From positions 520,322 to 584,321 of the forward strand of contig OY970290.1 of assembly GCA_963716205.1 (NCBI GenBank): a stretch of DNA of 64,000 nt, given 5' to 3'. The position numbers and the translations under genes are program-made. Below the pieces are notes generated by a model. It ran no database searches. It was not told the origin of the DNA and worked only from the letters and a program-made list of their open reading frames with translations. Of this stretch, positions 4,283 through 43,900 are shown piece after piece (positions within the stretch are counted from its first letter, which is position 1; each line of letters opens with the position of its first letter). The stretch is from an uncultured bacterium (GTDB lineage Bacteria > Patescibacteriota > Minisyncoccia > Phycocordibacterales > GWA1-40-21).

Positions 4283-4376
4283 AATTTATGGCTAAAAATA
4301 AGGTTAAAATTAAATTTATAAATGTATTATACACCAAAAATAGTTTGGGTCAAAATTAAATTATTGGAAAAAACTT

Positions 4377-8557: not shown

Positions 8558-8896
8558 ATGTCGGCCAACCGAAGCGAAAAAATAATAAAAATTGTGAAAG
8601 GCGCGGCGGCGGATTTCATGCAAAAAGAATCCAACGGCGCATCACTCATTACCATTACGAACGCAATCCTTTCAAACGACGAGAAATATGCTACTATTCT
8701 TTTCACGGTGCTGCCGGCCGACAAAGAGCAGCCGGCGCTTGAATTTGCCAAAAGAATGCGCAGCGAATTCAAAGAATACGTGAAGACGCACACCAAGCTC
8801 GGCAAGATTCCCATGTTTGATTTTGCGATCGATCTTGGAGAAAAGCATCGCCAAAAGATTGATTTGATTTCATTGAAAAAAAATAAGGCCCAGTAG
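8558..8896 (+). CDS. rbfA: Ribosome-binding factor A
   Basis: 112 aa, immediately after infB (the conserved infB-rbfA order). KH-like RbfA pattern ...FMQKESNGASLITITNAILSNDEKYATILFTVL. Confidence 0.7.
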   Translation: MSANRSEKIIKIVKGAAADFMQKESNGASLITITNAILSNDEKYATILFTVLPADKEQPALEFAKRMRSEFKEYVKTHTKLGKIPMFDFAIDLGEKHRQKIDLISLKKNKAQ

Positions 8897-8957
8897 CCAA
8901 GTGGTAAGGCAGAGATCTGCAAAATCTCTATGCGGCGGTTCAATTCCGCCCTGGGCC
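8886..8957 (+). tRNA. tRNA-Cys(GCA)
   Basis: Acceptor GGCCCAG/CTGGGCC, anticodon stem GAGAT/ATCTC with loop CTGCAAA, T-arm GGCGG-TTCAATT-CCGCC. Confidence 0.85.
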
Positions 8958-9027
8958 TCACCAGAATTTATGTTTCTATTATATAATGGTATACTCGTAT
9001 ATGTTCTAAAACTTATTCGTATACCAT

Positions 9028-9501
9028 ATGCCAAAAAGCAAAAATTGGACAGAAAAATCTTTAAAAGATGCAGTGCTCCATTCCACAAGCATTAGGCAAG
9101 TTTTATATAAAATCAATCTCATACCAGCTGGCGGAAACTATGATCAAGTTAAAAAATATATAAGAAAATTAGGTATTGATACAAAACATTTTAAGGGAAA
9201 GGCGTGGAACCGCGGAATGAAATTCATCAGCGTGCCAAAAATAAAATTAGAGGATATTCTTGTAAAAAATAGTGATTTTCAAAGTTTTAAATTAAAAGAA
9301 AGACTTTTCAAAGCAAAAATAAAAAATATTGAATGCGAAGAATGTCACTGGGCAAAGGTATCTGAAGATGGTAGAATCCCCCTTGAGTTGGACCATATTA
9401 ATGGCAACAAAAGAGACAATCGGCTGGAAAATTTAAGGGTTCTCTGTCCAAATTGTCATAGTTTGAAATTGACGCGCAGAGGAAGAAATAAAGGGAAATA
9501 A
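9028..9501 (+). CDS. HNH endonuclease (homing-endonuclease-like), inserted in the tRNA cluster
   Basis: C-terminal HNH motif: CEECHWAKVSEDGRIPLELDHINGNKRDNRLENLRVLCPNCHSLK. Confidence 0.8.
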   Translation: MPKSKNWTEKSLKDAVLHSTSIRQVLYKINLIPAGGNYDQVKKYIRKLGIDTKHFKGKAWNRGMKFISVPKIKLEDILVKNSDFQSFKLKERLFKAKIKNIECEECHWAKVSEDGRIPLELDHINGNKRDNRLENLRVLCPNCHSLKLTRRGRNKGK

Positions 9502-9506
9502 TAAAT

Positions 9507-9591
9507 GCCTGGGTGGTGGAACTGGTATACACGCAACACTTAAAATGTTGTCTGCTTAACGCGGATGTGGGTTCGATTCCCACCCCAGGCA
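9507..9591 (+). tRNA. tRNA-Leu(TAA)
   Basis: Acceptor GCCTGGG/CCCAGGC, anticodon stem CAACA/TGTTG with loop CTTAAAA, long variable arm, T-loop TTCGATT. Confidence 0.85.
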
Positions 9592-9604
9592 CAAAAAAAC
9601 TTAG

Positions 9605-9677
9605 TGCACCCAGTTGGGATCGAACCAACGACCTTATCCTTAAGAGGGATTTGCTCTACCAGCTGAGCTATGGGTGC
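9605..9677 (-). tRNA. tRNA-Lys(CTT)
   Basis: Minus strand: acceptor GCACCCA/TGGGTGC, D-arm GCTCAGCTGGTAGAGC, anticodon loop CTCTTAA, T-arm GTTGG-TTCGATC-CCAAC. Confidence 0.85.
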
Positions 9678-9747
9678 AAGTCATTAAAATAACAGAAAAA
9701 TAACAAAAAATCAATTTATTTGAGTTTTTGTTGAAAAGCACGTATGA

Positions 9748-9838
9748 TGCTTTTTGTTGGGCGGGTGGTGAAATGGTAGACACGCTAGCCTTAGGAGCTA
9801 GTGCCGCAAGGCATGGAGGTTCAAGTCCTCTCCCGCCC
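9748..9838 (+). tRNA. tRNA-Leu(TAG)
   Basis: Acceptor GGGCGGG/CCCGCCC, anticodon stem CTAGC/GCTAG with loop CTTAGGA, long variable arm, T-loop TTCAAGT. Confidence 0.85.
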
Positions 9839-10870
9839 ACAGTTTGAAACTTTTAGCTCATAAAGAGCATCGAAAGGCGCATTTAGCGTATATTTTTCAA
9901 CGTTTTTCCCCTTTACCGTAAAGTTCAAGAATACTTTTCTGATAAAATAATCCAGTTCAGCCATATTTTTGATAGAAGCCAATGTTTTAGCCATATTCTC
10001 CATAATTTCAAGAAATTCAGAATATGTCTTGATATTTATTTTATTCTTTCCAATAAATTTTTCTGCCTCGGCTATAGCTACCTCACTTTCCTTTATTTTT
10101 TCGTCATACCGTTTTAGATCATCCTTGTAATAGGCTTTGACACTCTCCGGCTCATCATGCAAAAGCAAATCCTTAGTTCTCAGCAATTTTTCATTGGATT
10201 GAATTTTAGTTGCTTGAAGAGAAAGAAGTTTTTGTCTTGCCTCATTCACGCGGTTTTTGGATACAATTTTCATCTCCTCGACATAATGATCATAACTTTC
10301 TTTGGAAGAAAAAGGTTTGCTAGCCAAAAATTTATAAATATAGGATGTGATCACATTGGCACGCAAAGATTTTCCACGCCTTGGACAATCATCATTATCG
10401 CAACGATAGTAAAAATATCTGACAATACCATCTTTTGTTTTCTTTGATGTCGCTCCTGCCGTCATTGATTCGCCACATTCACTACAAAAAATAATACCGT
10501 TCATAAGATGGGCTTTTACACCTTCGGCTTTGCGATAAGCCTTTGCCAATCTAATATACTGTGCATCCGAAGACAACTTATTTATCTGCATAAATTCCGG
10601 AACACTGATCATTGGCACAAATCCATACAACTCTATGAGATTCGTGATCTCATTTTTTCCATACTTGAGTATACCCGTATAAACAGGATCTCTGAGCATC
10701 TTATCAATTTTTTGTTTTGTCGCTTTGAAAGGTTTTGGTTTTTCACCGACATTATTGGTGTGAGTATATCCGCTTGCATTTATATAATCCGCGATTTCAT
10801 CGAGTGTTTTGCCTAACAGCCGTGTTTGGTTTCTCAGTAACAACAGGCTTCGGCAAACGCTCAACAACAT
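9821..10870 (-). pseudogene. Large serine recombinase remnant lacking the N-terminal catalytic domain; its 3' end overlaps tRNA-Leu(TAG)
   Basis: Recombinase-domain block (LGKTLDEIADYINASGY...VYTGIL), Zn-ribbon (CSECGESM...YYRCDNDDCPRRGK) and C-terminal coiled coil. No resolvase catalytic Ser region, and nothing resembling one upstream to 11129. Confidence 0.55.
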
Positions 10871-22014: not shown

Positions 22015-23184
22015 TTATTTCGTATCTATGATAGCCACGCTGTAGCGCAAACCAAAAAGCATCAGGAATCCGAGTGCGAAGAAAATATATTGTATTTTGA
22101 AATACCAGAGAAATACGATGGCAACAAGCGGCGCAACACCATATGCAACGAGTGACATCAGGCGATACATGGTGATGATGTCGACATTCTTCTCGCCGAT
22201 TTTTTTGAAAAAATAGGTGTCAGACATGACTTGCACAAGCGCTGCGCCAATTCTTGTCATGCACAAAAGTATCGCCCAGATCAAAAAACTTTTGCCGCCG
22301 ACAAGCGGGATCAATGCGCATGATATTGCCATGATGACAAATCCGATCGAAAGCATTTCCTTTTCGCCGTATTTTTTATCAGCAAGCTCCCCCGCCGGCA
22401 CTTGGATAAAGACAAACGGCACCAGCATAATCGTGAACATGGCGCCGATCGTCACCCAGCTGAAACCGATATATTTGTTCAAATACAACGGCGTATAAAT
22501 GACCATCCACGCAAAGAAAAAATTCAACAGAAACGACGAGGCAAAAATGGACCGGATATCTTTATTCGCCCGCACATCGCGAACAGTCGCAAGAAATTTC
22601 AGATTGGAATATTCCGGATCTTTGAATCCTTTCAGATTATATGAAACGAGCAGCGTTGTCGGGATCATAACCGCAGTCGCCGCCAAAAATACTTTCCAAT
22701 ATGAAGAAGTGCCGATTAAAAGTCCTGAAAGCCACGGCGAAAAGAGATAGGCAATGTTGATCGCGGTCAAATAAAAACTTCTGATCCTTCCGGTGTCAAA
22801 ATTAAACGAATTATGTTCGATAAAAACATCGAGACATAAGCTGATGAGTGTCGTCGTAATGTAGCTCACAATAAAGCATAAAATAATGACATACGCATTT
22901 TTTGAAAAAGTGATGCCCAAAAGAGCAAAAAATGTCAGGATGCAAAGATATAGCGTCAGCTTATAATTGCCGTATTTCCGGAACAATTGCGGCATAAATA
23001 CAAAAACGATAATCGTCGCGATCGCACAAAATACGTAAATGATTCCGGTCGCCTGCTCGCTCGTAAGCCCTGCAAGAAATGTCGAGCTGATGTAGTTCGG
23101 CAGAGACGAAGAAAAAGTAAAAACAAAACTCAATACGTAGAGGACGAAAAGTGCCGGCGCGGTAAAACGAAATATTTTTTTCAT
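22015..23184 (-). CDS. MFS transporter
   Basis: About 12 predicted TM helices, MFS-type loop between TM2 and TM3. Confidence 0.7.
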   Translation of the reverse strand: MKKIFRFTAPALFVLYVLSFVFTFSSSLPNYISSTFLAGLTSEQATGIIYVFCAIATIIVFVFMPQLFRKYGNYKLTLYLCILTFFALLGITFSKNAYVIILCFIVSYITTTLISLCLDVFIEHNSFNFDTGRIRSFYLTAINIAYLFSPWLSGLLIGTSSYWKVFLAATAVMIPTTLLVSYNLKGFKDPEYSNLKFLATVRDVRANKDIRSIFASSFLLNFFFAWMVIYTPLYLNKYIGFSWVTIGAMFTIMLVPFVFIQVPAGELADKKYGEKEMLSIGFVIMAISCALIPLVGGKSFLIWAILLCMTRIGAALVQVMSDTYFFKKIGEKNVDIITMYRLMSLVAYGVAPLVAIVFLWYFKIQYIFFALGFLMLFGLRYSVAIIDTK

Positions 23185-23190
23185 ACGATA

Positions 23191-23637
23191 TTATTTCAAA
23201 ATAACCTGAATGAATTTTTCCTGATTAAGCTGTCGATTTCCGCTCGGGTTGTCATTTTTGAGCATGATCAATCCGCGGTCAGTCGTCGTGGCTTTCGGAT
23301 AAACAAGTGTCGCCGAAAAATCAATGATACTTGTCGTCGCCCAGTCTCCTGGTGTTTGCGCGGTTGTCGTCGCAATGACATCGCCGTTCGAATCAAAAAG
23401 CTCAACGGGAAACGAACCTTCGAAAAACCAATTGCCGGAAACTTTCCCGCTTATCCGTATCGGGCTCGTCACCGTTTCTCCGTCAATCGGAGAAAAAATA
23501 TCGGGTGTATCGGAAGCCACTGTATTTTGATCCGTCATCGGAATACGCGCGTCATTTTTGCCCCAGTCAAAAATAAATGTGCAAGCGGCGAGCGCCACTA
23601 TCAGCACGACAAGAATAAAAACGATGATTTTTTTCAT
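23191..23637 (-). CDS. Secreted Gmad2-type immunoglobulin-like domain protein
   Basis: Start re-placed at ATG 23637 (MKKIIVFILVVLIVALAAC signal/anchor). Gmad2-like block PIRISGKVSGNWFFEGSFPVELFDSNGDVIA. Confidence 0.55.
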   Translation of the reverse strand: MKKIIVFILVVLIVALAACTFIFDWGKNDARIPMTDQNTVASDTPDIFSPIDGETVTSPIRISGKVSGNWFFEGSFPVELFDSNGDVIATTTAQTPGDWATTSIIDFSATLVYPKATTTDRGLIMLKNDNPSGNRQLNQEKFIQVILK

Positions 23638-23641
23638 GTAT

Positions 23642-24058
23642 TTATTGCGGCAAGGCGCAGCCGGTCGATGAAGCAAGCAATTTCATTGTCGCATCGCCAT
23701 CAAAACCGACATCAATGATCGTTGAGGAACCGAGAATCCATGTTGGATATCCTTGTACTCCTTTGTCAATGCAAAGCTGCGTGTTGTTCGGACATTCAAC
23801 ATATTTTACATACTGGAACGAATTGCCGAACGTTGCCTTTAATGCCTGGCAATGCGGACACCATGACGCGCCATACATTACCGCGCCGGCATTTGTCAGA
23901 CACTCTGCAAACGCATCATATGTGCTTGAAGCATTTGAATATGAAACCGTACCTGCACTTTTTGTATTGACGAGTGCGAATATGATGACTGCCGCCGCAA
24001 TAACGACCGCCGCGCCCATGATTATTTTATTCTGCCTGCTGATTTCATTTTTTTCCAT
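23642..24058 (-). CDS. Membrane-anchored thioredoxin-fold thiol:disulfide oxidoreductase
   Basis: N-terminal TM. WCPHC active site (YGASWCPHCQALK). Confidence 0.65.
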   Translation of the reverse strand: MEKNEISRQNKIIMGAAVVIAAAVIIFALVNTKSAGTVSYSNASSTYDAFAECLTNAGAVMYGASWCPHCQALKATFGNSFQYVKYVECPNNTQLCIDKGVQGYPTWILGSSTIIDVGFDGDATMKLLASSTGCALPQ

Positions 24059-24077
24059 ATATTTTTTATTATTATAA

Positions 24078-24575
24078 TTATTCCTTGCAACAATCGATAA
24101 GCCTGCTCATGATATCTTTCATATTCATCGGCTGATTTTCATCTATTTTTTTAATATTGGAAACATTGATGATTTTTAATCTAAGGGCAAAAAACATGTT
24201 GAACATTTTATACGCTTCTTCAAACATTTCCTTCGCTTCGTCTTTCTTGTCGCTTGCCTCCAGCTTCGTGCCGACTTCAAAAAGCCGCATTGAAGTCGCA
24301 AGCAGATGTTTGGATATGCACCAGCTTTCTCCTTCTGTTTTCTCTATCATTTTTGCCAAAAGTTTCGTTCGCACCGATCGAACTTCAAGAAGCAAATCGA
24401 AATATTCCGGCTTGTCCGTCTTTGCGCCAGTAAAGAAAAAATGCTCCTCGAGACTGACGAGATTCATGATTGCAATGGCGAGATCTTCCTCGGTCGACAG
24501 ATCAAAATTTCTGCCTTTTTTCAGTTCTTCGATTTTCTTCAGAACTTCCTCATAATGTAAATTATTCTCCTGCAT
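24078..24575 (-). CDS. Hypothetical protein (helical/coiled-coil)
   Basis: 165 aa, no recognisable motif. Sits between the thioredoxin and CcdA genes. Confidence 0.4.
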   Translation of the reverse strand: MQENNLHYEEVLKKIEELKKGRNFDLSTEEDLAIAIMNLVSLEEHFFFTGAKTDKPEYFDLLLEVRSVRTKLLAKMIEKTEGESWCISKHLLATSMRLFEVGTKLEASDKKDEAKEMFEEAYKMFNMFFALRLKIINVSNIKKIDENQPMNMKDIMSRLIDCCKE

Positions 24576-24579
24576 ATTT

Positions 24580-25365
24580 TTATTGTATCACAAAAATCAG
24601 CAAGCCCAAAAGGATCATGATGAGCGCAAGCCAGATCCTCGCTTTTTTGGTTTCCGCTTTGCGAATTGTGTCCATCGTGTTGAGAACTTTTTTGTTTGAG
24701 GCGATGAGAAGCGCAATGAAAAGCGGAAGAACAAATACAAGATTATAAAATATCAGATACGCCAGTCCCGTCCAAAATTGATGCTGATCATGCAGAAGTC
24801 CGAGAACAAATAAATACGGTCCGCCCGTGCACGGGAATTCAAAAAGTCCGACAACAACGCCGAGCACGAATGTCGCCGGCAAAGTGGCTTTTTCCATCAA
24901 AGTCGCAATCCTTCCGTAGGCAAAATCGGGGATTTTTAATTTAATTGGAAAGTTCGGCACGAATTCATTGATCAGATTGATAACGCCGAAAAGAATGATG
25001 CATGTCGCGCCGACTTTAGACATCAGATCCGGAATATTGAAAATGGAAAGCACGCGCAAGATGCCAAGACCGATGAGCACATAGGTGGCAAAAATTCCGA
25101 AGACATATGAAAGCCCCGCTTGGAATATTTTCGTCCGAGATCTGCCGATACTGAAAAGAAATGCGACTGTCAGAAATAAAACCGAAAAAGCGCACGGATT
25201 GACGCTATCTACAAGTGCCGCGATCGCAATAAGTGCCGGCAGCCATCCTTTGTAGGTGCGGATATCCGGTGCATGAAAATGAAAAACTCCGGAATACAAA
25301 AGTATCAAAAATCCGAAAATGACCACAAACAGGCTTACTGCGATTATTTTATTCTTGTCCGCCAT
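24580..25365 (-). CDS. ccdA: Cytochrome c biogenesis protein CcdA / DsbD-type transmembrane electron transporter
   Basis: DsbD-family TM domain with conserved NPCAFSVL Cys and a second Cys in FPCTGGPYL. Confidence 0.8.
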   Translation of the reverse strand: MADKNKIIAVSLFVVIFGFLILLYSGVFHFHAPDIRTYKGWLPALIAIAALVDSVNPCAFSVLFLTVAFLFSIGRSRTKIFQAGLSYVFGIFATYVLIGLGILRVLSIFNIPDLMSKVGATCIILFGVINLINEFVPNFPIKLKIPDFAYGRIATLMEKATLPATFVLGVVVGLFEFPCTGGPYLFVLGLLHDQHQFWTGLAYLIFYNLVFVLPLFIALLIASNKKVLNTMDTIRKAETKKARIWLALIMILLGLLIFVIQ

Positions 25366-25387
25366 GGAGCGATTATATCATACGGAT

Positions 25388-26308
25388 TTATTTTTCATGC
25401 ACCGCATGGCCGCCGAAATGTTTCCGCAAAAGTGCGACGAGTTTATTGGAAAATTTATTCTGATTTTTCGGATCGGCGGATTCTGCGCGGACATTGACCG
25501 CATCAGCAATTATCCTCGCATCCACACCAAGCTCTTTTGCAATTTTTACCGTCCACTCGCCCTCTCCGGTCGAATCGATTTTCCCCGAAGTGTTTTTGAT
25601 ATCTTCATTCTTAAAAATATCGGCGCACAAATCAACAAGCCAGCTGCGCACGACAGAACCTTTCTGATATATGCGCGTTACATCGGAAAGATTCAAGACA
25701 AACGGACTTGCATCGAGAACGGCGTATCCTTCGGCAATCGCTTCCATCATGCCGTATTCAATGCCGTTGTGAACCATTTTGGTGAAATGCCCCGCGCCGG
25801 ATTTCCCCAGATACGCATAATTGTCGCCGGATGAAAGTGATTTTATAATCGGTTCAATACTATCCCATTTTTCTTTTGGTCCGCCGACCATTAAAGCAAA
25901 ACCGTTTTTTTCTCCCCAAATACCGCCTGATGTGCCGCAGTCAAAAAAATCCACGCCGATTTTTGCCAATTTTTCCGCCCGTTCCATACTGTTTTTGTAA
26001 AAAGAATTTCCGCCGTCAATGACAATGTCTTCTTTTTTCAAATGTCCGCCAAGATGCTCCGGACTAAAAATAAATTCATCGACGATTTCCGCCGGAAGCA
26101 TAATCCAGAAAATTCTCGGTTCTCCATTTATCTTTTCCACCGCTTCTTTTATCTCCGTCGTCGCAAAAATTCCCGTTTTTTTTATTTCAGTGACTGCTTC
26201 AACAGAACGATTCCAGCCGATGACATCAAAACCGCCCGCATGTAATCGTCTTGCAATCTGGCTTCCCATTTTTCCAAGTCCGAACACTGTGATTGGCTGT
26301 TTTTTCAT
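25388..26308 (-). CDS. gnd: 6-phosphogluconate dehydrogenase, short (Gnd-like/YqeC) form
   Basis: N-terminal Rossmann VFGLGKMGSQIARRL. 6PGDH signature GKSGAGHFTKMVHNGIEYGMM. The ATG at 26308 overlaps the zwf stop by 1 nt. Confidence 0.8.
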   Translation of the reverse strand: MKKQPITVFGLGKMGSQIARRLHAGGFDVIGWNRSVEAVTEIKKTGIFATTEIKEAVEKINGEPRIFWIMLPAEIVDEFIFSPEHLGGHLKKEDIVIDGGNSFYKNSMERAEKLAKIGVDFFDCGTSGGIWGEKNGFALMVGGPKEKWDSIEPIIKSLSSGDNYAYLGKSGAGHFTKMVHNGIEYGMMEAIAEGYAVLDASPFVLNLSDVTRIYQKGSVVRSWLVDLCADIFKNEDIKNTSGKIDSTGEGEWTVKIAKELGVDARIIADAVNVRAESADPKNQNKFSNKLVALLRKHFGGHAVHEK

Positions 26309-27690
26309 TATGATTTCCAAAAAATATTATTTTTTTGCGACCATGCCTCAAATTCTTTCGGGCCATTGCCGCCGACTGAATATGAAAACACCGGCAATTT
26401 TTCCCGCTTCACCGCATCGACGATTTTCCACGAATATTCCATCTCATCTTTACCGATAAAAAACGACTGCTCACCCCGGAGCGCTTCATCGATGAGGACG
26501 ACATAGGCATCCATATTGTGCGGACCATATGCGTCATGATTATAATCAAGATCGATTGTCTGTATTTCGTAATTGCCGGTCTGTGCTTTCGAATTTATTT
26601 CAAATGCGAATCCTTCGTTCGGCTCGACGCGGATCGTCAGATAATTGTTGTCGGACGGGCATGTTTTGGAAAGCAAACATTCCACTCCTTTGAATCTGAT
26701 GTGCGCAATGGTCTGCTTTTTCGCCAAATTTTTCCCTGCGCGGATGAAAAACGGCACGCCTTTCCATCGCGAATTATTTATTTCAAGCTTTGCCGCAAAA
26801 AATGTGTCGGTTTTTGAATCCGGCTTTACAAACTGCTCGTTTGTATATTCTTCATATTGCCCGAAAATACTATCGGTGATTTTCGTCATTTTCAAAACAT
26901 CGGCTTTCTTTTCTCTGATATGCTCGCCTGTCAGCCGATCCGGCGACTCCATGGCGAGAAGCGCGAGTATTTGCAAAGCGTGACTTTGCATCATATCTTT
27001 CATCGCGCCGTAGCTGTCGTAATATTTTCCGCGCCCTTTGATGCCAAAATTCTCATCGAGAATGATCTGCACCGAGTCCACATCGCGGCGGCTCCAGAGT
27101 GGCTCGAGAATTCTATTGGTAAAACGCAAAAGAGCTATATTTGCCACGAGCTCTTTGCCGAGATAATGATCCGCTCGGTAAATATTTTTCTCGTCAAAAA
27201 TTGTGCCGATGCATGCATTGATCTTTTTCGCGGAAGTCAAATTATGTCCGAACGGCTTTTCATAAATGACTCTTTGGATTTTCCCCGCACCGCCGACAAG
27301 CCCGACTTTTGAGAGATTGCGCGTAATGGATTCGAAATTCTCCGGAAGTGTCGCGAGATAAAATAATCTATTGCCGGATAAAACATTTTTTGTTTCTATT
27401 TCATCGATTTTGCTTTTCAAATTTACATAATCTTCCGGCATACCGAAATTGACTTTGCAATACATGAAAGAATTTTTCAGAATATTCCAGATGTTTTCAT
27501 CAATCTCTGTAATATTTTTCTTCACTTCATCGAGAATCATATTTGCATCTCGTTCGCTTGATGCCGTGCCGATCAATGAAAATTTCCCTATCTTTTTCGA
27601 TTTGATGAGTTCATATATTGCCGGAATAAGCTTGAGCTTCGCCAAGTCCCCCGTCACGCCGAGTATTACGATGGTGCAATTTTCGTTCAT
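26308..27690 (-). CDS. zwf: Glucose-6-phosphate 1-dehydrogenase
   Basis: VILGVTGDLAKLKLIPAIY NADP site and DHYLGKE active-site motif. Confidence 0.9.
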   Translation of the reverse strand: MNENCTIVILGVTGDLAKLKLIPAIYELIKSKKIGKFSLIGTASSERDANMILDEVKKNITEIDENIWNILKNSFMYCKVNFGMPEDYVNLKSKIDEIETKNVLSGNRLFYLATLPENFESITRNLSKVGLVGGAGKIQRVIYEKPFGHNLTSAKKINACIGTIFDEKNIYRADHYLGKELVANIALLRFTNRILEPLWSRRDVDSVQIILDENFGIKGRGKYYDSYGAMKDMMQSHALQILALLAMESPDRLTGEHIREKKADVLKMTKITDSIFGQYEEYTNEQFVKPDSKTDTFFAAKLEINNSRWKGVPFFIRAGKNLAKKQTIAHIRFKGVECLLSKTCPSDNNYLTIRVEPNEGFAFEINSKAQTGNYEIQTIDLDYNHDAYGPHNMDAYVVLIDEALRGEQSFFIGKDEMEYSWKIVDAVKREKLPVFSYSVGGNGPKEFEAWSQKNNIFWKS

Positions 27691-27694
27691 ATCT

Positions 27695-28582
27695 CTATTC
27701 TACTATGACACTTAACTTCTCACCAAAGATTTTTGATGCTTCTTCAATATATCGCTCAATATTTTCCTTGAAATACGGCGGGTTGGCTTTTTGGATCTGC
27801 CCGATGACATAATACCCGACTGCCAAAAGCGTGCCGTAGCTGAAGCCTTCCGGCAATTCAATATGCAATCTGTTTTTACCGAATATTTCATCGTGATATC
27901 CAAGACCGATGAATAATTCCGCATCTGACGGTTCCACCGTCTTTGCATGCTTGGTCTCATCCGGCGTGAATACTCGGCCGAGCAGGTTCGGACCGAAGAG
28001 CTCGTCAAACTTGGTCAGGAAAAATTCACGAATATCTTCAAACTCATCGGAAATAAGAATGAAAAATGCTTTGTATTTTGAAAGATCATTCGGAATCGTA
28101 TTTTTTATTTTTTCTATCGCGCCCATTATCATTTTTGGATCTTCGCCTGTTTTGCCAAGAATCATGCCGAGATATGTCGAGGTGTTGTAAGTATATGGCT
28201 CCGGATTTTTGGCAAAAACATGGACCTCGTCAACTATTTTTCCAGCTGCGGAATTTTCTGTATTCGTCAAAAGGACTGTTTTAATTCCTCTTTTCTTTAA
28301 TTCAGCCGCAATGATCGGTGCGTGCTTGCCGCCGGAAGCGGAAATCAAAATAGCTCCGTCAATTGCCTTAATTGAGTCCAATTTCTGCACATAATTGCTC
28401 TCATCGGCAAAGACAGCGTCAGTGTCTTCAAAAATAATTTTTCCCGTTACTGCTGCATTACCGCTCCCCACCACGATTGGCCGCGCGAAGCTCGGCAATT
28501 CCAATTTTGGAATACCTTTTTCAATAAAAAGATTGAGCGCATTGAGAACGCATTCATCGAGGTTGATAAGTTCTTCTTTCAT
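27695..28582 (-). CDS. SIS-domain sugar-phosphate isomerase-like protein (possibly a bifunctional phosphoglucose/phosphomannose isomerase)
   Basis: SIS-like block ILISASGGKHAPIIAAELKKRGIKTVLLTN. Adjacent to zwf/gnd. Family assignment not secure. Confidence 0.45.
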   Translation of the reverse strand: MKEELINLDECVLNALNLFIEKGIPKLELPSFARPIVVGSGNAAVTGKIIFEDTDAVFADESNYVQKLDSIKAIDGAILISASGGKHAPIIAAELKKRGIKTVLLTNTENSAAGKIVDEVHVFAKNPEPYTYNTSTYLGMILGKTGEDPKMIMGAIEKIKNTIPNDLSKYKAFFILISDEFEDIREFFLTKFDELFGPNLLGRVFTPDETKHAKTVEPSDAELFIGLGYHDEIFGKNRLHIELPEGFSYGTLLAVGYYVIGQIQKANPPYFKENIERYIEEASKIFGEKLSVIVE

Positions 28583-28600
28583 AATTTTATTTTATCATAA

Positions 28601-30124
28601 TTACATAAACCCTGGGAAGAAGTCAGTTTTGATATGGGATTTGTGAACACCAATCTTTTTCAATTCGATATCTGCGGTTACAACCATATCTCGCGTGCCG
28701 GAAATATAAAAATGTCTGTCGTGGAAATCCGGAATCGTTTTTGCAATCATCTCCCCCATTATTCTGCCGTTTGCATAATTCTGATTTGATGCCTGATTGT
28801 CCCGCGTCAAAAAATAAATCGTCTTCAATCCGATTTTTGTCCGAGCATCTTCAAAAATATCTTTGTAGGCAATGTCGGCAAGGGTCAGATTGGAATACAG
28901 AAATACAATATCCCTTTTTTCGCCAATATCAATCAGATATTTGATCATGCTTCGAAACGGCGTCACGCCGATGCCCCCGGCAATGAAAACTAGTTTCTCT
29001 TTTCTATTTCTCGGCATAGTAAAATCTCCAGCAAGCCCGCTCGCGACAATCGTATCTCCTTTCTGAAAATCGAGAATTTCTTTTTTGAACGTGCTTCCGT
29101 TCTCATAAAATTTCACACCGAGATGAATTTCATTTTCCGTCGGCGAGGATGCAATCGTGAAATATCGGCGATTGCCGCGACTGTCAGTATTTTCATGTCC
29201 GAGCGTCCATTCCAAATATTGCCCGGGAACAAATGAGACCTTTTTATCGGCCGCAAAAACAAAATCATAAATATTCGAGGTCAGCTGTATTTTTTCTTTG
29301 AGCGTCAATATTGATTTTACTTTCGGACTGACAAGGTAGGAAAAAATATTGCCGAGGATCAAAGCGATCTCCGGCGTCATGTAAATATTTCCAAAGTGAA
29401 TGAACGGCGCAAAAAAAATCCCGATCAAAATTCCGTACATGATCCGCAAGCTTCTCGTCGGCGGAGTGGTGAGCGGCTCGGTGAGCATTACTGTTGCAAA
29501 AAAGAAAACTGGTGTATCAAGGGCAATTCTTACCAGATAACTTGGAATGGCAAAAAGATTCGTCACCTGCACCGACAAAATAACAATTATTGCAACTGCC
29601 AGAAAAGATAAAACCAAATCTTCCCGCATGGTCTTTCTGGTAATCAAAAATCCGGCAACAAGCACGAACGGCAACATAATAGCGGTGCCGATCCACCAGC
29701 TCGCGGTAAAATTAAAAAGAAATGCCGTCGCAACAACAGCAATTGCTGCGGGATTAAATACATGTTTTTTGCCGATTGCAAAAATATATTTTGATGCACT
29801 GGCAATTGATGACGCCCAAAATGCAAACCAAATGAAATTCACATCTGCCGGCGATTTGAGCGGTGTGATGATAAGCGCAAGGATCAAAGCGGTGATATAA
29901 ACCGACTCAACATTCGTCTGTGCATTGAACACTTTTGCAAAAATCGCATTGCTGACAATGGAAACTGCAAGAATAAACAATGTGCTGACAACAAGTGCAA
30001 ACGGCGTGAACGGCAAAGAGCCAAAAAAACTGATGCAAAACGCCACGAAAAGAAGCGCAATCAAAGAATAAAGTACTATTCGATACATCGTAATCCTGTT
30101 CAAAAAATTGTCGATATATTTCAT
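28601..30124 (-). CDS. Membrane-embedded flavoprotein oxidoreductase: polytopic N-terminal domain fused to an FNR-type FAD- and NAD(P)-binding module
   Basis: About 8 TM helices in the first ~290 aa. Then RRYFTIASSP (RxYS FAD motif), FIAGGIGVTPF (NAD(P) GGxGxxP) and a C-terminal FNR fold. Confidence 0.7.
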   Translation of the reverse strand: MKYIDNFLNRITMYRIVLYSLIALLFVAFCISFFGSLPFTPFALVVSTLFILAVSIVSNAIFAKVFNAQTNVESVYITALILALIITPLKSPADVNFIWFAFWASSIASASKYIFAIGKKHVFNPAAIAVVATAFLFNFTASWWIGTAIMLPFVLVAGFLITRKTMREDLVLSFLAVAIIVILSVQVTNLFAIPSYLVRIALDTPVFFFATVMLTEPLTTPPTRSLRIMYGILIGIFFAPFIHFGNIYMTPEIALILGNIFSYLVSPKVKSILTLKEKIQLTSNIYDFVFAADKKVSFVPGQYLEWTLGHENTDSRGNRRYFTIASSPTENEIHLGVKFYENGSTFKKEILDFQKGDTIVASGLAGDFTMPRNRKEKLVFIAGGIGVTPFRSMIKYLIDIGEKRDIVFLYSNLTLADIAYKDIFEDARTKIGLKTIYFLTRDNQASNQNYANGRIMGEMIAKTIPDFHDRHFYISGTRDMVVTADIELKKIGVHKSHIKTDFFPGFM

Positions 30125-30125
30125 A

Positions 30126-30884
30126 TTATTCCTTTAAATATTTTTCAAATCCGCTCGTGAATGTCGCAATGCCTTGTGCATCAATCATATATCCTTCCAA
30201 GCCGTCGATATTTTCGATAAAGCTGATCCCCTTTTTGCCCATGGCGAATGCCGGCGTGGCAAAACGATCCGCTTCGTAAATATTTGAACCAATGACCGTC
30301 AGGCTTACAATGTCGGTGATCGGCTTATTTTCGGCATCGTGCGGATTGTAAATATGCTGACCGCGCAGATACGTGCCTGATGTTGCAATACCTTCGCTGT
30401 GCGCGAGGTAGACGACTTTGACGATTTTCTGCTGCGTCTTATCAAACGGATCTTTGATGCCGACCGACCACGCTTTTCCTTTTTCATTTTTGCCGGCAAC
30501 TTGGATATCGCTTCCGGCATTGACGTAATAATTTTTGAAGCCCGCTTTTTTCAAAAGAAGTCCGGCATGATAAATCGCCCATCCTTTGACAAGCCCCGAC
30601 GTATCATATTTCCCGTCGGGTTTTTTGATATTGAAATATCCGTTCGTCAACCGCCGCAATTCCTCCGAAAGATAGAAAACTTCCTTCATCTCGGAACTAA
30701 ATTCTTTTTCCCTGACTTCGCCGGTATTGATGCGCGAAAGCTCGCTTGTTTTTTTATACGGACTGAACCTTTCATCAATGGATGTGAAATATGTAAAAAT
30801 TTTATTAAGATCAGACGAAGCCGCCAGTGGATCAATGACATCGATAGTAATTGGCATACCCATGATACTTCTGGTTTCTTTCAT
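30126..30884 (-). CDS. apbE: FAD:protein FMN transferase (ApbE family)
   Basis: ApbE blocks MGMPITIDVID..., GIATSGTYLRGQHIYNP. Sits between the reductase and the FMN-binding-domain gene. Confidence 0.85.
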   Translation of the reverse strand: MKETRSIMGMPITIDVIDPLAASSDLNKIFTYFTSIDERFSPYKKTSELSRINTGEVREKEFSSEMKEVFYLSEELRRLTNGYFNIKKPDGKYDTSGLVKGWAIYHAGLLLKKAGFKNYYVNAGSDIQVAGKNEKGKAWSVGIKDPFDKTQQKIVKVVYLAHSEGIATSGTYLRGQHIYNPHDAENKPITDIVSLTVIGSNIYEADRFATPAFAMGKKGISFIENIDGLEGYMIDAQGIATFTSGFEKYLKE

Positions 30885-30907
30885 AAAAATGATTGGAATA
30901 AAAGAAA

Positions 30908-31366
30908 TTAATTTTTTGCGAGAGCAAGAGCTGTCGCAAGAGATTGTTCAAATGCATTGCTTGTCTGCGTCGCACCGGAAACGATATTCACATCTGCACT
31001 CTGCGACTGTATCGTTTCGGATTTCAAAATCGGCATTGAAGAATTGCTGACATCAAGCGAATGTCCGTGATTGGGATATTGCAGAAATGCTATATTGGCA
31101 AGCGCACCATTTTGTATAACGGCTTGGACCTGAAGGTTTCCGTAATATGCGTTTGCAACAGAGCCGATATACGTGCCGTCTTTGTAGGCACCACCGTTTT
31201 GCGAAATATTTTCTGAACTTGTTGTTGCTTGAGTTGTTGTTTGAACTATCGGCTGATTTTTATTGCCTGAAACCGCGGCAATATTCGTCTGCCCGGTCAT
31301 ATTCTGATATATGATATAGCCGGCAACAGCAAGGATAAATATAGAAGATACTATGATTTTTTTCAT
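30908..31366 (-). CDS. Membrane-anchored FMN-binding domain protein (flavinylation target)
   Basis: N-terminal TM (MKKIIVSSIFILAVAGYIIY). FMN_bind domain with flavinylation motif SGAT in DVNIVSGATQTSNAF. Confidence 0.75.
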   Translation of the reverse strand: MKKIIVSSIFILAVAGYIIYQNMTGQTNIAAVSGNKNQPIVQTTTQATTSSENISQNGGAYKDGTYIGSVANAYYGNLQVQAVIQNGALANIAFLQYPNHGHSLDVSNSSMPILKSETIQSQSADVNIVSGATQTSNAFEQSLATALALAKN

Positions 31367-31520
31367 GGAATTAATTATATAATGACTGATAATAAAGGCA
31401 ATAAAGCTATTTTGTTTGTTTTTATACGTCTACTCTGTGAATAAGTTGCTTGTTTTTACATGGCTTATGATATAATTGTATGGTCGAATTTTATTTAACT
31501 TATTTTATTTTAATAATAAT

Positions 31521-31793: not shown

Positions 31794-31801
31794 GACAAAT
31801 C

Positions 31802-31832
31802 AAAAGAGCGGCGCCGAAGGCGCCGCTCTTTT
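31802..31832. terminator. Bidirectional hairpin terminator (copy 2 of the three-copy family)
   Basis: AAAAGAGCGGCGCC-GAAG-GGCGCCGCTCTTTT, between convergent genes ending at 31793 and 31846. Confidence 0.8.
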
Positions 31833-31845
31833 GATTTTGCGTTTT

Positions 31846-32803: not shown

Positions 32804-34585
32804 TTATCCAAACGTAAACGTGTACGCATCAAGTCCGCTTCCTTCCACTTCAATTTTAACGGTGTGCGTGCCGTAAGAATCCGACTGCAAAAGTTTGTAG
32901 AGCTTGTCGCCTTGTATCGTCGCCGTGCCATCGGGTGAAACATCCGCTCCTGCCATTGCACCCGGAGCTTTGCCGTCAACAGTGATTTTTATTTGCGTGC
33001 CAGCTGGATTTTCCGATGCCGCCACAAAATACAGATTTTTTGCGGAATATTGATATTCAATCTCGCTTCCCGTCGCCGCTTGCGCGTATTGGGGAGTGAA
33101 ATTCCAATTGCCACCAAGATACAATTGATTCATTGCGATTAAACTCGGAATTACCAGACTCTGCATTCCATTGACGCTTTGATTTCCATTCGAGAGATAT
33201 TCATTTCTGTTTGAGCCGAAATATGTTTCAGGGCTCGCGACCGCGGAATAATTTATCGAGACTGCGTCCGACGGATTGACAATGCCGGCGGAAATTGGAG
33301 TCGATGTGCCGAGCACCGTATCAAGCTGTCCGAGTGCTTTTTGTATCGCCTCTTCCGTCACGTCGTAGTCGCCCTCGCCCGGATGATTGTAGACAATGTA
33401 ACCCTCAGCATCGATCAAGTATGTATTCGGCCAATATTCATTACCGAAAGCGTTCCATGTGCCGTAATCATTATCCATGACGACTGGATACGTGATGGCA
33501 TCCGTTGCGACTGCTTGCTCGACATTCGATTGCACTTTTTCAAACGAGAATTCCGGAGTGTGAATGCCGATAATCTCCAATCCCTCGGATGCATATTTGG
33601 CATTCCATGCTTTGATATACGGCGTGGCGCGCTCGCAATTGATACAGCTGTATGTCCAAAAATATACGAGTACTATTTTTTTATTTTTGAATTGTCCGAT
33701 GGTAATCGGCGAGCCGTTGGTATTGATGAATGCAGACGGATCTGTAATTTCTGGCGCCTTTTGATAATGCGCTTCATCGTATGCAAGCAATTTCGCGGCA
33801 TTTTCCGCGGAGCTCGTGGCATTGAGTGTGACAGTGCTCGTGGCGATTGTATTTGATGATTGTGAATTTTCTAAAAGATTTTGCTCTATCTTTGTCACAT
33901 CAAAATATCCGGAATTGGTGATTGCCGATTCGATTTGCGTATCAAGCCCGAACATAATCAGTATGCCAAGCGCAACAAAAATTACGCCGATCGTTTTCTT
34001 CAGCCAGCCGTTCGGGTCCGAAGCAATATTAAATTTTGCCAAAAGCTTTTGTCCGGCGACCGATATCAAAAGCAAGGTGCCGCAAAGCCCGATCGTGTAG
34101 ACAAGCAAATACAAAATTCCCACAACGATGCTTCTCGGCAAAACGGTGGCAAGAATAAGGAAATATGTCGGTGAACAGCTCGAAAATACCGGACCAAGCG
34201 CCACACCGATCAAAACATCACCGATGAAATTTTGTTTTTGATAGCCAACGGTGATTAATTTATTCGAATCGCGGTTGATCATGGAGAGAAATGGAATTTT
34301 GTCGAGCAGCTTCGGAAAGACCATGGTCAATCCAAGACCGAAAATAATCACGCCCGAAAGTATTTGCCAGAATGACTGCGGGACATTAATGAACACCGTG
34401 CTAACTTTCAGAATAAGCGTAAAAAGAATGACCGACACGCCGAGCGATGTAGTGACGACAAATGCGCGGCGCATGTTGCGCTCCCCGCTCAATGTCCCGC
34501 CGACAATCACAGGCAGTAGCGCCAAAGTGCACGGCGCAAGGACAGTCAGTATTCCGGCGATCAATGATAATGCCAAAAGTATCAT
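32804..34585 (-). CDS. CcdA/DsbD-type transmembrane domain fused to an extracytoplasmic thioredoxin (redoxin/TlpA-like) domain, plus a C-terminal beta-rich domain
   Basis: N-terminal DsbD-family TM domain (LAPCTLALLPVIVG). Redoxin domain with WTYSCINCERATPYI. 593 aa. Confidence 0.8.
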   Translation of the reverse strand: MILLALSLIAGILTVLAPCTLALLPVIVGGTLSGERNMRRAFVVTTSLGVSVILFTLILKVSTVFINVPQSFWQILSGVIIFGLGLTMVFPKLLDKIPFLSMINRDSNKLITVGYQKQNFIGDVLIGVALGPVFSSCSPTYFLILATVLPRSIVVGILYLLVYTIGLCGTLLLISVAGQKLLAKFNIASDPNGWLKKTIGVIFVALGILIMFGLDTQIESAITNSGYFDVTKIEQNLLENSQSSNTIATSTVTLNATSSAENAAKLLAYDEAHYQKAPEITDPSAFINTNGSPITIGQFKNKKIVLVYFWTYSCINCERATPYIKAWNAKYASEGLEIIGIHTPEFSFEKVQSNVEQAVATDAITYPVVMDNDYGTWNAFGNEYWPNTYLIDAEGYIVYNHPGEGDYDVTEEAIQKALGQLDTVLGTSTPISAGIVNPSDAVSINYSAVASPETYFGSNRNEYLSNGNQSVNGMQSLVIPSLIAMNQLYLGGNWNFTPQYAQAATGSEIEYQYSAKNLYFVAASENPAGTQIKITVDGKAPGAMAGADVSPDGTATIQGDKLYKLLQSDSYGTHTVKIEVEGSGLDAYTFTFG

Positions 34586-40915: not shown

Positions 40916-43900
40916 TTACGGCGTTGTTGTAGCATCTGTTTGTGACAGGTCTGATGTTGTCGCCATGTCCGCATCGCTGCTTGCATCTTGGTCATCCGTT
41001 GATGATGCATCGCTTACGACCGTCTGATCGTCTGTTGAAGTCGCTGTTTGATCGTCAACTGATGAGGAATCCGTGCTTGATGCCGAATCATCCGTCGAAG
41101 TTGCCGTTATATCCGATGGATCGGAAGAGCTTGCTTCAGTTGTGGTTGCAATTTGCGTCGAATCTCCTGCCGAAGAAGGTGTCTGTATTTCAGTTGGAGC
41201 GAGAGAAGAACTTACATTACTATTGTCCATAATCGCTTGGAGCTGATCGCCGGTCAAACATACTTCAGTTCCGTCTGATTTGGCAACACAAATCTGATTT
41301 GTATAAATTTGTTTCGCAAATATTTCGTCAAAATATCCCCTGATTGCCGTTACTCGAGCTGAAATAAAATTAACAAGAAATTCGGTACTTGAAGCTATTT
41401 CCTGACCGATCACCACATCGGGATCTTGAGCTGTTTCGGATTGAATCGTTGATATGAGCGTGGAAAGACCGTTGTCAGTGCTTGAAGCAGATGGAGAAAT
41501 ATCACCGAGAAGTGCCGATTGTTCTTGAATCGCCTTTATAATTACGGGCGTGATCTGACTATAATCAAGCGCGTATGGCAAACCCTGATCATCGAGAACG
41601 ACTGCTTCCGGAATAAGCGGATAAACTTCTTCCGCAATCAAACCGTTTTGAAGCGCGGTTGTGCCGCTATCATAATAATAATTCACCGGTCGCAAAGCAT
41701 CAATCGTTTCCAGACCCATGGTCAAATCTGTTATGTCATTTTTGAAACGCTCGGATGAAGTATTGCATGCATTTTGCGCAGCACCCTTTACAACTCTATT
41801 GCCAGCCGTAATACATAAAACCGTATTGCCATTGCTTTGAGGACCAGGGTTGCTAAAATCCAATGTTCCCGCTCCAAGCGTCAGTGTGTCCAAAGATGAA
41901 CCGATACCGATAGTATCGGCCGTCGTATTATTCGTCCCAATATTGATTGCATCGCCGGCAGTGCCTGTGCCGATATTTATCGTCTTTGCATTATTTCCCG
42001 TTCCAAGATTCACCGTTCCCGTTGTTCCCGAATCAAGCGTGACGGAACCTGTTGTGCCGGAGGTTATTGAAACATTGCCAGTCGTTCCGGTGAGAAGCGT
42101 CAATCCGCCGGTACCAGAATCCAATGCCAAACTTGTCGCGCCGGTCGTATTTCCCAGAGTAATCGTCTTTGCAATATTGATACCGATATTCATTGCCCCC
42201 GTGCCAGAATCAAGAGTCAGCGCGGAAGCGCCGTTTGTCGAACCGATAACAATCGTCTGCGTAGCTGCCCCATTTCCAATATCAATCGTTCTCGCTTGAG
42301 CGCCAGTGCCAATAGCAATATTTCCCGTACCGGAATCAACCGTAACAGTTGATGTGCCTGTTTGATTTCCGATATTTATTGTTTTTGCCGAAGCGCCGGT
42401 GCCAAGATTGAGTGTTTGAAGTCCTGCAGTTGCAACACCGGAAAGAATATTAACGGTTGAATTCGCGGCGGAGGCGCCAGCTGCAATATTCAAAACTTGA
42501 GCGGAAGTATTTGCGCCATTTCCTACTGAAATAGTATTACCAGCTGTTCCATTTCCAATATTTATTGTTTTAATGCCAGTGCTGCCTCCGCCGAAATTTA
42601 AAATCTGCGCACCAGTCGAGCCACCAACATTGATGGTGCCTGTCATTGCGCCGTTTGAATTGCCGATATCAATCGTGCCGGTCGTCAATGCACCGCCGAT
42701 TGCAATAGATCCGCCGACTTGTGCATTGCCGATTCCGATAACGTTTGCACCGGTGCCGCCAATATTTATTGTTTCGACAGATGCAGCCGCATTGCCAAGA
42801 TTGATCGTTCTCGCAACGGCGTTTGTGCCGATTTCAATATTCCCCGTACCGGCATTTAAAACAAGTGATGTCGCTCCCGTCCCATTTCCAATAGTAATAG
42901 TTTTTGCATTTGTGCTTGTTCCAATGTCTATGTTCCCGGTAGTTCCAGAATCAAGATCCAAATTCCCTGTCGTTCCAGAAACCACCAAAAGAGATGCTGC
43001 AGCAGCAGATGTAAGTGAAAGCGTATTATTTGAAGTAAGTAATGTTGCTCCTGTTCCGGTAAATGTGGCGGATGTGGTTGCAATAGTAAAACGATTGGCG
43101 CCAGCGGTAATAAATGAAAGCGGATTTGCATCGGTCGTACCGAGCGTTGCGGGAGCCCCGAAAGCGTTGCCTGATTGTTCGAAAGCATACGAACTTATAT
43201 TTTGCTGATTGGCGGGCAAAGAAGCTACATGCCATGTTGATGATTGAGTGTTGTAAATAAACTCCGCGATATTATCCGTTGTCAAAATAATACTGCTCCC
43301 TGTCGGAGTTTCAACGCGATTTGCCGCAGTGGATGAACTATCCGTATCGGTAATGGTCAGAGTAAAATTGCTGTCATTCAAAAGATAAAATACCTTGCCG
43401 TCAATGCCTCCGGAAAAACCGGTGAAAGTTGCCGGGCCGTTTCCGTTATAAATAAACCATGAACCCGTTCCCAAATTTACATTATTTTGAGATCCCGTTG
43501 TCATATAGTCAGCTCCTTCCGGAATAAGAAAATTACCCGATATGGAAATATTAGTTGTTGAAGCGCTGCCCAATGTTGTTTGCCCAGATACCGTGAACGT
43601 ATTGGAACCCAAATTTACATTTGCATTTGCTCCAGTATACGGAACATAAAGTGAACTTGATGCAAACGGAATATACGCAAGTGAAGTCGAAGCTGAAAGT
43701 GGAAGATATGCTGCTGCGGCTGATGTGGTTGAAAGATATCCAAGCAAAGTAGTGGTAAAGGTTGAAGTAGAGACGTAATTCGTAAGAGTGGATGTAGTTG
43801 CCGTGACATATCCTGCCGGATTGGTGTTGAGATAATACAAAGTTGAGGAGGCAAATGGAATGTACGCCAATGATGTCGAAGCTGAGAGCGGAAGAAATGT

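Follow-up and report, generated by a model that had tools for sequence, protein, structure and literature searches.

A three-gene NQR/RNF-like flavin module for the predicted export of electrons from NAD(P)H in a Patescibacteria genome

Patescibacteria, also named the candidate phyla radiation (CPR), are generally viewed as fermenters without electron-transport chains, and a locus of this group that places a membrane-bound NAD(P)H-binding protein next to a flavin transferase and its putative target raises the question of whether, and by which route, electrons could leave such a cell. The locus lies in a stretch of 64,000 nucleotides (hereafter the window) from an uncultured bacterium of the Patescibacteriota (assembly GCA_963716205.1, contig OY970290.1, positions 520,322 to 584,321), the minus strand of which carries three successive open reading frames (ORFs) coding for an FMN_bind protein (152 aa), an ApbE-family flavin transferase (252 aa), and a fusion of a membrane domain with an FNR-type reductase module (507 aa), separated by gaps of 23 nt (FMN_bind/ApbE) and 1 nt (ApbE/fusion). 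An initial annotation, made from the letters of the DNA, had proposed that this trio passes electrons from NAD(P)H through the FNR module and the membrane domain to a flavinylated extracytoplasmic FMN (flavin mononucleotide) protein. The ORFs, their coordinates (Table 1) and the domain calls are borne out by the ORF list and by Pfam profile searches, in which the matches of the trio are all above the curated cut-offs, and the core logic of the proposal is supported and agrees with the literature on the class of systems described below. Specifically, we read the locus as a member of the published NQR/RNF-like class that would export electrons from NAD(P)H to the outside by means of flavins only, would be matured by ApbE and would act in this lineage as a redox valve, and we put the probability of this reading as a whole at about 0.7.

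The fusion protein (28601-30124, minus strand) was compared with 80 fetched loci of its relatives, 75 of which have room upstream for both partner genes, and the close relatives L081, L082, and L083 were compared separately for their local gene order. Its C-terminal part matches NAD_binding_1 with 48.5 bits (cut-off 22) and FAD_binding_6 with 27.3 bits (cut-off 21.1), and the protein holds the FNR motifs RRYFT (residues 319-323), GGIGVTP (residues 383-389), and a C-terminal DFFPGFM; among the orthologues, RRYFT and GGIGxTP do not vary, and DFFPGF at the C-terminus is nearly invariant. The N-terminal part matches NQR2_RnfD_RnfE (PF03116) over residues 145-265 with 33.3 bits (cut-off 27.7) and displays eight hydropathy peaks in residues 16-244, in keeping with the polytopic domain of about eight transmembrane (TM) helices fused to an FNR module that had been proposed; the AlphaFold2 model of the full fusion (mean pLDDT 84, pTM 0.74) places about 10-11 helices in residues 1-265. 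As a single sequence, the membrane domain gives no meaningful match to the PDB in a phmmer search, and a 37-orthologue profile of residues 1-268 retrieves from the whole PDB only RnfD (8ahx_D, E = 7e-6) and NqrB (E ~0.01). Judged by these profile matches, the membrane domain is an NqrB/RnfD homologue, and the claim that the architecture is unlike that of NQR and RNF had to be given up, since the membrane part is of this family and the C-terminus is NqrF-like. Moreover, the [ST]GA[ST] flavinylation motif is absent from the window fusion and from 80 of 80 orthologues, and the segment that matches NqrB residues 179-271 spans only about 50 residues in the fusion, being about 43 residues shorter. 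This NqrB segment includes the flavinylated residue Thr236 (V. cholerae numbering). As the alignment stands, the NqrB-like domain of the fusion is without the flavinylated loop and the Thr of NqrB and RnfD.

The covalent flavin is predicted to be carried by the FMN_bind protein instead, in which a low-complexity linker joins the anchor at the N-terminus to an FMN_bind domain of about 90 aa, with the SGAT motif at residues 130-133 and the codon of Thr133 at 30968-30970. FMN_bind orthologues are found in 71 of the 80 loci, and L039 and L063 have two FMN_bind genes each. Conservation of the SGAT threonine was one of the points on which the proposal depended, and all 73 orthologues keep an [S/T]GA[T/S] motif about 23 aa before the C-terminus, with D or N at position -6 of the motif in nearly all of them. 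The best solved relative of the family profile in the PDB is 8P2A (E = 5e-22), whose SGAT aligns with that of the family. It is the second domain of SaFMN3, a Streptomyces azureus protein with three FMNs in which the FMN is seen crystallographically on the Thr (PMC10339131), and through this alignment Thr133 is the predicted site of FMN attachment. No NqrC or RnfG chain of the PDB matches the profile at E <= 1, so the subunit is NqrC/RnfG-like in role and Pfam family only, and its sequence is nearer to the compact extracellular FMN_bind domains of the SaFMN3/PplA type; similarity to the NCBIfam PplA model is itself weak (16.7 bits, far under the cut-off of 325). As to topology, the family has a net charge of +2.0 in the flank N-terminal to the helix versus 0.03 in the 15 residues after it, the N-flank being the more positive in 63 of 74 members, and the linker (median 61 aa, 73% P/T/S/A/G/Q/N) has a composition typical of an extracellular stalk. 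Charge bias and linker composition together point to an N-in/C-out anchor followed by an extracytoplasmic stalk, which would place the FMN domain outside the membrane, as the proposal requires.

The ApbE protein keeps the motifs GLVKGWA, ATSGTY, HIYNP, and EADRFAT; the patterns GxxKG, ATSGxY, HxxNP, and DxxxT align with Escherichia coli ApbE and are invariant in the alignment of ApbE orthologues, and the enzyme is predicted to transfer FMN from FAD (flavin adenine dinucleotide) to the target Thr in a Mg2+-dependent reaction. Its AlphaFold2 model (pLDDT 93, pTM 0.89), compared by Foldseek with every solved ApbE, Ftp, and FmnB structure, gives TM-scores of 0.78-0.88 when normalised to the query and of about 0.67 when normalised to the target, and the protein is without about 50-60 residues of the canonical enzyme (roughly E. 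coli residues 100-152). Shortness is a family trait: the orthologues examined are all about 250 aa long and without about 50 residues of canonical ApbE, and the lengths of the best 120 homologues in the database all fall within 239-269 aa. No hydrophobic segment, signal peptide, lipobox, or TM helix was found in the window ApbE or in about 70 orthologues, and in the model residues 2-7 already form a core beta-strand. An overlooked start further upstream would find little space, fewer than 15 codons separating the upstream stop from the position of residue 1 in about half of 70 orthologous loci; where there is room, the upstream sequence is non-hydrophobic and coincides with part of the FMN_bind gene, read in a different frame. 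Hence, the enzyme looks functional but cytoplasmic, and its target looks extracytoplasmic, a conflict that the initial annotation did not raise and that, being spread across the family, poses a concrete question about the site of flavinylation. The ApbE gene between FMN_bind and the fusion is missing in L015, L027, and L039, where FMN_bind directly precedes the fusion, and neither FMN_bind nor ApbE lies upstream of the fusion gene in L048, L051, and L058, from which it follows that ApbE is not always encoded in the cluster. An Anaerolineae contig, L079, carries downstream of its trio a second ApbE of the full-length type (about 310 aa; 3923-4864, minus strand), which was considered as a secreted contrast and rejected, as it is also without a signal peptide.

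The trio recurs as a unit. Of 75 loci with room for the partner genes, 67 show FMN_bind, ApbE, and fusion co-directional and arranged as in the window, and in 72 one partner or both are present, so that the synteny on which the proposal depended is observed. The relatives of the fusion protein number more than 7,900 at 90% clustering, and 360 representatives, mostly of 480-515 aa, remain at 50% identity and E <= 1e-30. An exact look-up of the 507-aa sequence itself found no record, and that of the ApbE gave a 2-kb Logan contig only. According to Méheust et al. (2021, eLife; PMC8238504), an NQR/RNF-like system is a flavinylation cluster with a protein that combines an N-terminal PF03116 with a C-terminal PF00175, and the class has already been reported from the CPR and from Actinobacteria (PMC8238504, PMC11334425). 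Huang et al. (2024, mSystems; PMC11334425) add that the NqrB/RnfD-like subunit no longer has a flavinylation site of its own. In the window, PF03116 and PF00175 lie on one polypeptide, ApbE and FMN_bind are encoded within five genes of it (immediately upstream), and the NqrB/RnfD-like subunit is without the flavinylated Thr. By these sequence features, the locus belongs to the published class, its CPR members included, and is not new in kind: the fusion, the FMN_bind and ApbE neighbours, the two structural subunits, and the lost NqrB Thr are the same, and nothing sets the locus apart in kind. Three points of the present analysis are not mentioned in the two papers, as far as these could be read, namely the ApbE of about 250 aa without a signal peptide, the prevalence of the family, and the apparent run-on into zwf and gnd described below. 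Regarding prevalence, the 127 published clusters greatly understate how common the family is in Patescibacteria, since at least 585 species-level genomes encode the fusion, most of them from Patescibacteria and some from Chloroflexota. The published surveys filtered on signal peptides, whereby the CPR was probably under-counted, and the lack of a signal peptide in ApbE may partly explain the published figure.

The module is self-contained, with no further conserved neighbour and no further Nqr/Rnf subunit in the window. A neighbour census over the 80 loci for a terminal reductase or other partner returned none that is conserved, the best being a generic ABC transporter (22 of 80, non-adjacent); other Nqr/Rnf subunits were neither found in the 64-kb window nor conserved near the trio in the 80 loci, and no respiratory genes were found within the window, a statement that covers the window and not the genome. 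The rest of the window holds housekeeping genes (ClpB, IF-2, RF, FtsEX, class II ribonucleotide reductase, RNase J).

How such a module might work can be proposed step by step, with all redox steps taken from homology and from a published model, and with the domains, folds, motifs, and synteny established computationally. The cytoplasmic FNR domain would take a hydride from NAD(P)H onto a non-covalent FAD, and the electrons would cross the membrane via the NqrB/RnfD-fold domain, which would have to hold at least one further non-covalent flavin. At the outer face, the electrons would reach the FMN that is presumably linked by a phosphoester to Thr133 of the anchored FMN_bind subunit, the adjacent ApbE being the likely enzyme that installs it. 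In Huang et al. (PMC11334425), the corresponding pair of Ktedonobacter racemifer is modelled by AlphaFold-multimer, and the FMN site of the anchored subunit docks at the outer face beside the corresponding NqrB/RnfD flavin pocket; by analogy, the FMN on Thr133 would occupy the pocket that in NqrB and RnfD holds the covalent FMN of these subunits. Finally, the reduced FMN would pass its electrons to an extracytoplasmic acceptor, for which O2, Fe(III), free flavins, and quinones are candidates. O2 has indirect support from the O2 reactivity of the closest solved relative, 8P2A, which belongs to a protein with an Em of -184 mV whose reduced form O2 oxidises at a rate of 1.2 per second (PMC10339131). 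As to iron, the literature suggests iron assimilation for six published clusters carrying VIT1, and nothing iron-related was seen at the window locus.

The source of the NAD(P)H may be sought downstream. The trio is preceded by a promoter-like site, the -10 hexamer of which ends 7 nt before the FMN_bind ATG (31366) with no visible Shine-Dalgarno sequence, so that the mRNA, on this consensus match, may be leaderless; no regulator-binding palindrome was found in the divergent promoter region. Downstream, the fusion is followed by genes for an SIS-like protein, glucose-6-phosphate dehydrogenase (zwf), and 6-phosphogluconate dehydrogenase (gnd), with gaps of no more than 18 nt and no terminator-like site in the gaps from the fusion through the SIS-like gene, zwf, and gnd. 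The order is the same in L081, whose fusion is 71% identical, and an SIS-like homologue of 300 aa occupies the same position between fusion and zwf in L081 and L082. Based on this spacing, the SIS-like gene is probably co-transcribed with the trio, and co-transcription with zwf and gnd is plausible. The SIS-like protein, which in the PDB finds only spurious antibody matches and no solved relative, may serve the pentose-phosphate branch as an isomerase of sugar phosphates or in place of a lactonase. An operon that appears to run into zwf and gnd suggests that the module reoxidises their NAD(P)H: Zwf is a possible source of NAD(P)H for the fusion protein, and in this lineage the module would reoxidise the NAD(P)H of the oxidative pentose-phosphate branch and thereby act as a redox valve. 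The co-directional run as a whole extends over 22015-31366 (minus strand) and counts eleven genes with gaps of no more than 23 nt, from FMN_bind through a major facilitator superfamily (MFS) transporter; after gnd it contains genes for a CcdA/DsbD-like membrane protein (261 aa), a 165-aa protein without assigned function, a thioredoxin-like protein (138 aa), a Gmad2 Ig-like protein, and the MFS transporter. L081 instead carries DsbB and DsbA-like genes nearby.

Table 1. Features of the flavin module and of its surroundings (positions in the window)
Feature	Coordinates	Strand	Basis or remark
Short-type 6-phosphogluconate dehydrogenase (gnd_rel), overlaps zwf end	25388..26320	-	NF007161 340 bits, TIGR00872 326 bits, above cut-offs
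zwf, glucose-6-phosphate dehydrogenase, 4 nt after SIS-like gene	26308..27690	-	TIGR00871 453 bits (cut-off 400.6)
SIS-like protein, 295 aa, 18 nt downstream of fusion	27695..28582	-	Weak SIS match
FNR-type FAD + NAD(P)H-binding domain of fusion, residues 269-507 + stop	28601..29320	-	Pfam, motifs
NqrB/RnfD-like membrane domain of fusion, residues 1-268	29321..30124	-	PF03116, PDB profile match
Short ApbE-family FAD:protein FMN transferase, 252 aa (245 aa from Met8)	30126..30884	-	PF02424 130.4 bits (cut-off 25.6)
FMN_bind protein, NqrC/RnfG-type subunit, 152 aa	30908..31366	-	PF04205 32.1 bits (cut-off 22)
Predicted ApbE flavinylation motif NIVSGAT, residues 127-133	30968..30988	-	Motif conservation, alignment to 8P2A
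Signal-anchor helix of FMN_bind protein, residues 4-20 after MKK	31307..31357	-	Hydropathy 2.4
Promoter-like site TTGCCT-16 nt-TATAAT	31374..31401	-	10/12 consensus matches; best site on the minus strand between 24 and 35 kb
Divergent small membrane protein, 89 aa	31524..31793	+	Conserved in L081; called gene in L083
Bidirectional intrinsic-terminator-like hairpin, 19-bp stem, 10 G-C pairs	31797..31837	.	Boundary between Msr operon and locus

Several points weigh against reading the locus as an ApbE-matured electron exporter wired to the pentose-phosphate branch. An ApbE without an export signal conflicts with an extracytoplasmic target, as it leaves no obvious route to flavinylate the FMN domain; the link to zwf and gnd is lineage-specific, since of 80 loci only 4 have a glucose-6-phosphate dehydrogenase gene near the trio and 2 a 6-phosphogluconate dehydrogenase gene; and the literature searched holds no experimental characterisation of any member of the NQR/RNF-like class and no CPR-specific work on the module.

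Comparison with better-known systems narrows down what the module could be. With respect to Na+-NQR (NqrA-F) and RNF (RnfABCDGE), the locus is without NqrA/D/E, RnfA/B/C/E, and all Fe-S subunits, so the six-subunit composition of these complexes is not found; the covalent FMN site (SGAT Thr) of NqrB/RnfD and its loop are lost, the FNR module is fused directly to the NqrB-like domain, and electron flow is presumably one-way and not semicircular. Like the extracellular electron transfer of the Listeria type, the module is predicted to deliver NAD(P)H electrons to an ApbE-flavinylated, membrane-tethered extracytoplasmic FMN_bind protein. Unlike it, Ndh2, EetA/B, and the genes for demethylmenaquinone synthesis were not found in the 64-kb window, the transmembrane step would be taken by an NqrB-fold flavoprotein without a quinone, and the window ApbE is without an export signal, whereas Listeria FmnB is a secreted lipoprotein. 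NADPH oxidases (NOX) and ferric reductases, such as Streptococcus pneumoniae SpNOX, differ in their carriers, which are haems and not flavins: the fusion has no 6-TM bis-haem domain and no PF01794 match, and its PF08030 match is below the cut-off. The closest solved carrier, SaFMN3, has the covalent FMN on the Thr that aligns with the SGAT Thr of the window protein (8P2A, PMC10339131), but consists of three tandem domains with an unknown donor, whereas the window protein has one domain only, and a neighbouring gene codes for a dedicated membrane reductase.

The conflict over ApbE is where an alternative enters most naturally. Flavinylation may take place in the cytoplasm, either before the carrier domain is exported or because the FMN_bind domain faces the cytoplasm and serves an intracellular NAD(P)H:acceptor oxidoreductase. 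Such a site would suit an enzyme that across the family has no export signal and whose core strand begins at residue 2, and that needs FAD, which is present in the cytoplasm; furthermore, cytoplasmic ApbEs with soluble targets are documented, as for the fumarate reductase of Klebsiella pneumoniae (PMC12052999). The Klebsiella ApbE shares the lack of a signal peptide with the window ApbE but has a cytoplasmic target, whereas the target of the window ApbE is predicted outside, and the window ApbE is in addition without about 50-60 residues of the canonical enzyme. An inward carrier is at odds with the N-in/C-out bias in 63 of 74 family members, the Pro/Thr/Ser-rich stalk, an anchor architecture as in the periplasmic NqrC and RnfG, and the complex modelled in PMC11334425, where the subunit is outside; flavinylation before export has no precedent in the export of a flavinylated chain, and the strongly hydrophobic anchor suggests co-translational targeting. 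On balance, we consider a cytoplasmic site of flavinylation in either form unlikely. A minimal redox-driven ion pump, in which the NqrB-like and NqrC-like pair couples electron flow to Na+ or H+ export, would offer Patescibacteria, if true, a compact means of membrane energisation. Its basis is that NqrB and NqrC are those subunits of Na+-NQR to which a role in Na+ translocation is attributed. Nevertheless, the locus has neither NqrD/E nor RnfA/E and is without the covalent FMN and the loop of NqrB, the literature on the class proposes solely unidirectional electron flow, and no result here favours ion coupling, so that we hold the pump to be very unlikely. A bolder version of the electron-export reading would make the module the main, perhaps the only, membrane redox device of many Patescibacteria, with cytoplasmic flavinylation or an inward carrier, working as a pentose-phosphate-wired valve for NAD(P)H disposal or O2 scavenging and, in its stronger form, as an ion pump; taken as a whole, we regard it as speculative and rather improbable.

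The initial annotation had also placed the trio in an envelope redox hub, in which the flavin module would work together with the nearby Cys/Met-rich peptide and Msr/CcdA-TlpA system, for instance by delivering electrons for the extracytoplasmic repair of methionine sulfoxides or disulfides. The small ORF is borne out and recurs divergently upstream of the trio in the close relatives L081 and L083. Its 89-aa product starts with a part rich in Cys, Gly, and Met (MHMCGCGGSCNCGCGMGH), followed by one TM helix and a C-terminus rich in Met, Gly, and Tyr; it matches no Pfam or NCBIfam family and is found in none of the 80 wider loci, so that it is a lineage-specific neighbour whose link to the system is not supported. 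Loosely similar small proteins with a TM helix and a Met-rich part adjoin HlyD-like genes in 11 of 80 loci. Beyond the hairpin, a 593-aa fusion (32804-34585, minus strand) of a CcdA/DsbD-type membrane domain, a TlpA/ResA-like thioredoxin, and Thioredoxin_10 heads an operon with MsrA and MsrB. The description of this operon as an extracytoplasmic Msr repair system holds for the CcdA-TlpA fusion, a membrane protein, but not for MsrA (catalytic GCFWC at residue 11) and MsrB (no hydrophobic start), which are without signal peptide or TM helix and therefore look cytoplasmic. A hub would accord with a trio flanked by CcdA-TlpA-MsrA-MsrB upstream and by CcdA-like and thioredoxin-like genes downstream, with DsbB and DsbA-like genes near the trio in L081, and with MsrA/MsrB genes within 6 kb of it in 4 of 80 loci, yet a strong terminator and a divergent gene stand between the Msr operon and the trio, and synteny is low (Msr in these 4 loci, CcdA-TlpA in 2 of 80, the peptide in none). 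CcdA/DsbD systems, moreover, draw on cytoplasmic thioredoxin and not on flavins. The terminator, the low synteny, and the empty neighbour census make the hub at most a local, lineage-specific arrangement, and as a functional explanation we give it very little credence.

Elsewhere in the window, two further regions stand apart from the module. A giant protein of 1883 aa (40916-46567, minus strand) has as its sole Pfam match the Peptidase_S74 intramolecular-chaperone domain, near residues 1604-1656, which is typical of tail-spike or fibre-like surface proteins. At 8887-10870, a cluster of tRNA genes (Cys, Leu, Lys, Leu) is interspersed with an ORF for an HNH endonuclease and with a piece of a recombinase in which only the Recombinase and zinc-ribbon domains are present, and the region looks like the remnant of an integrated element.

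Since the module is an NQR/RNF-like system of a known kind, the remaining interest lies in the short ApbE without a signal peptide throughout the family, in a prevalence among Patescibacteria above the published one, and in the pentose-phosphate link of this lineage. A clean three-gene unit and a source genome in public data make it a convenient candidate for heterologous reconstitution. If the proposed route is true, a flavin wire from NAD(P)H to the outside would let Patescibacteria rebalance their redox state, detoxify O2, reduce iron, or swap electrons with their hosts.

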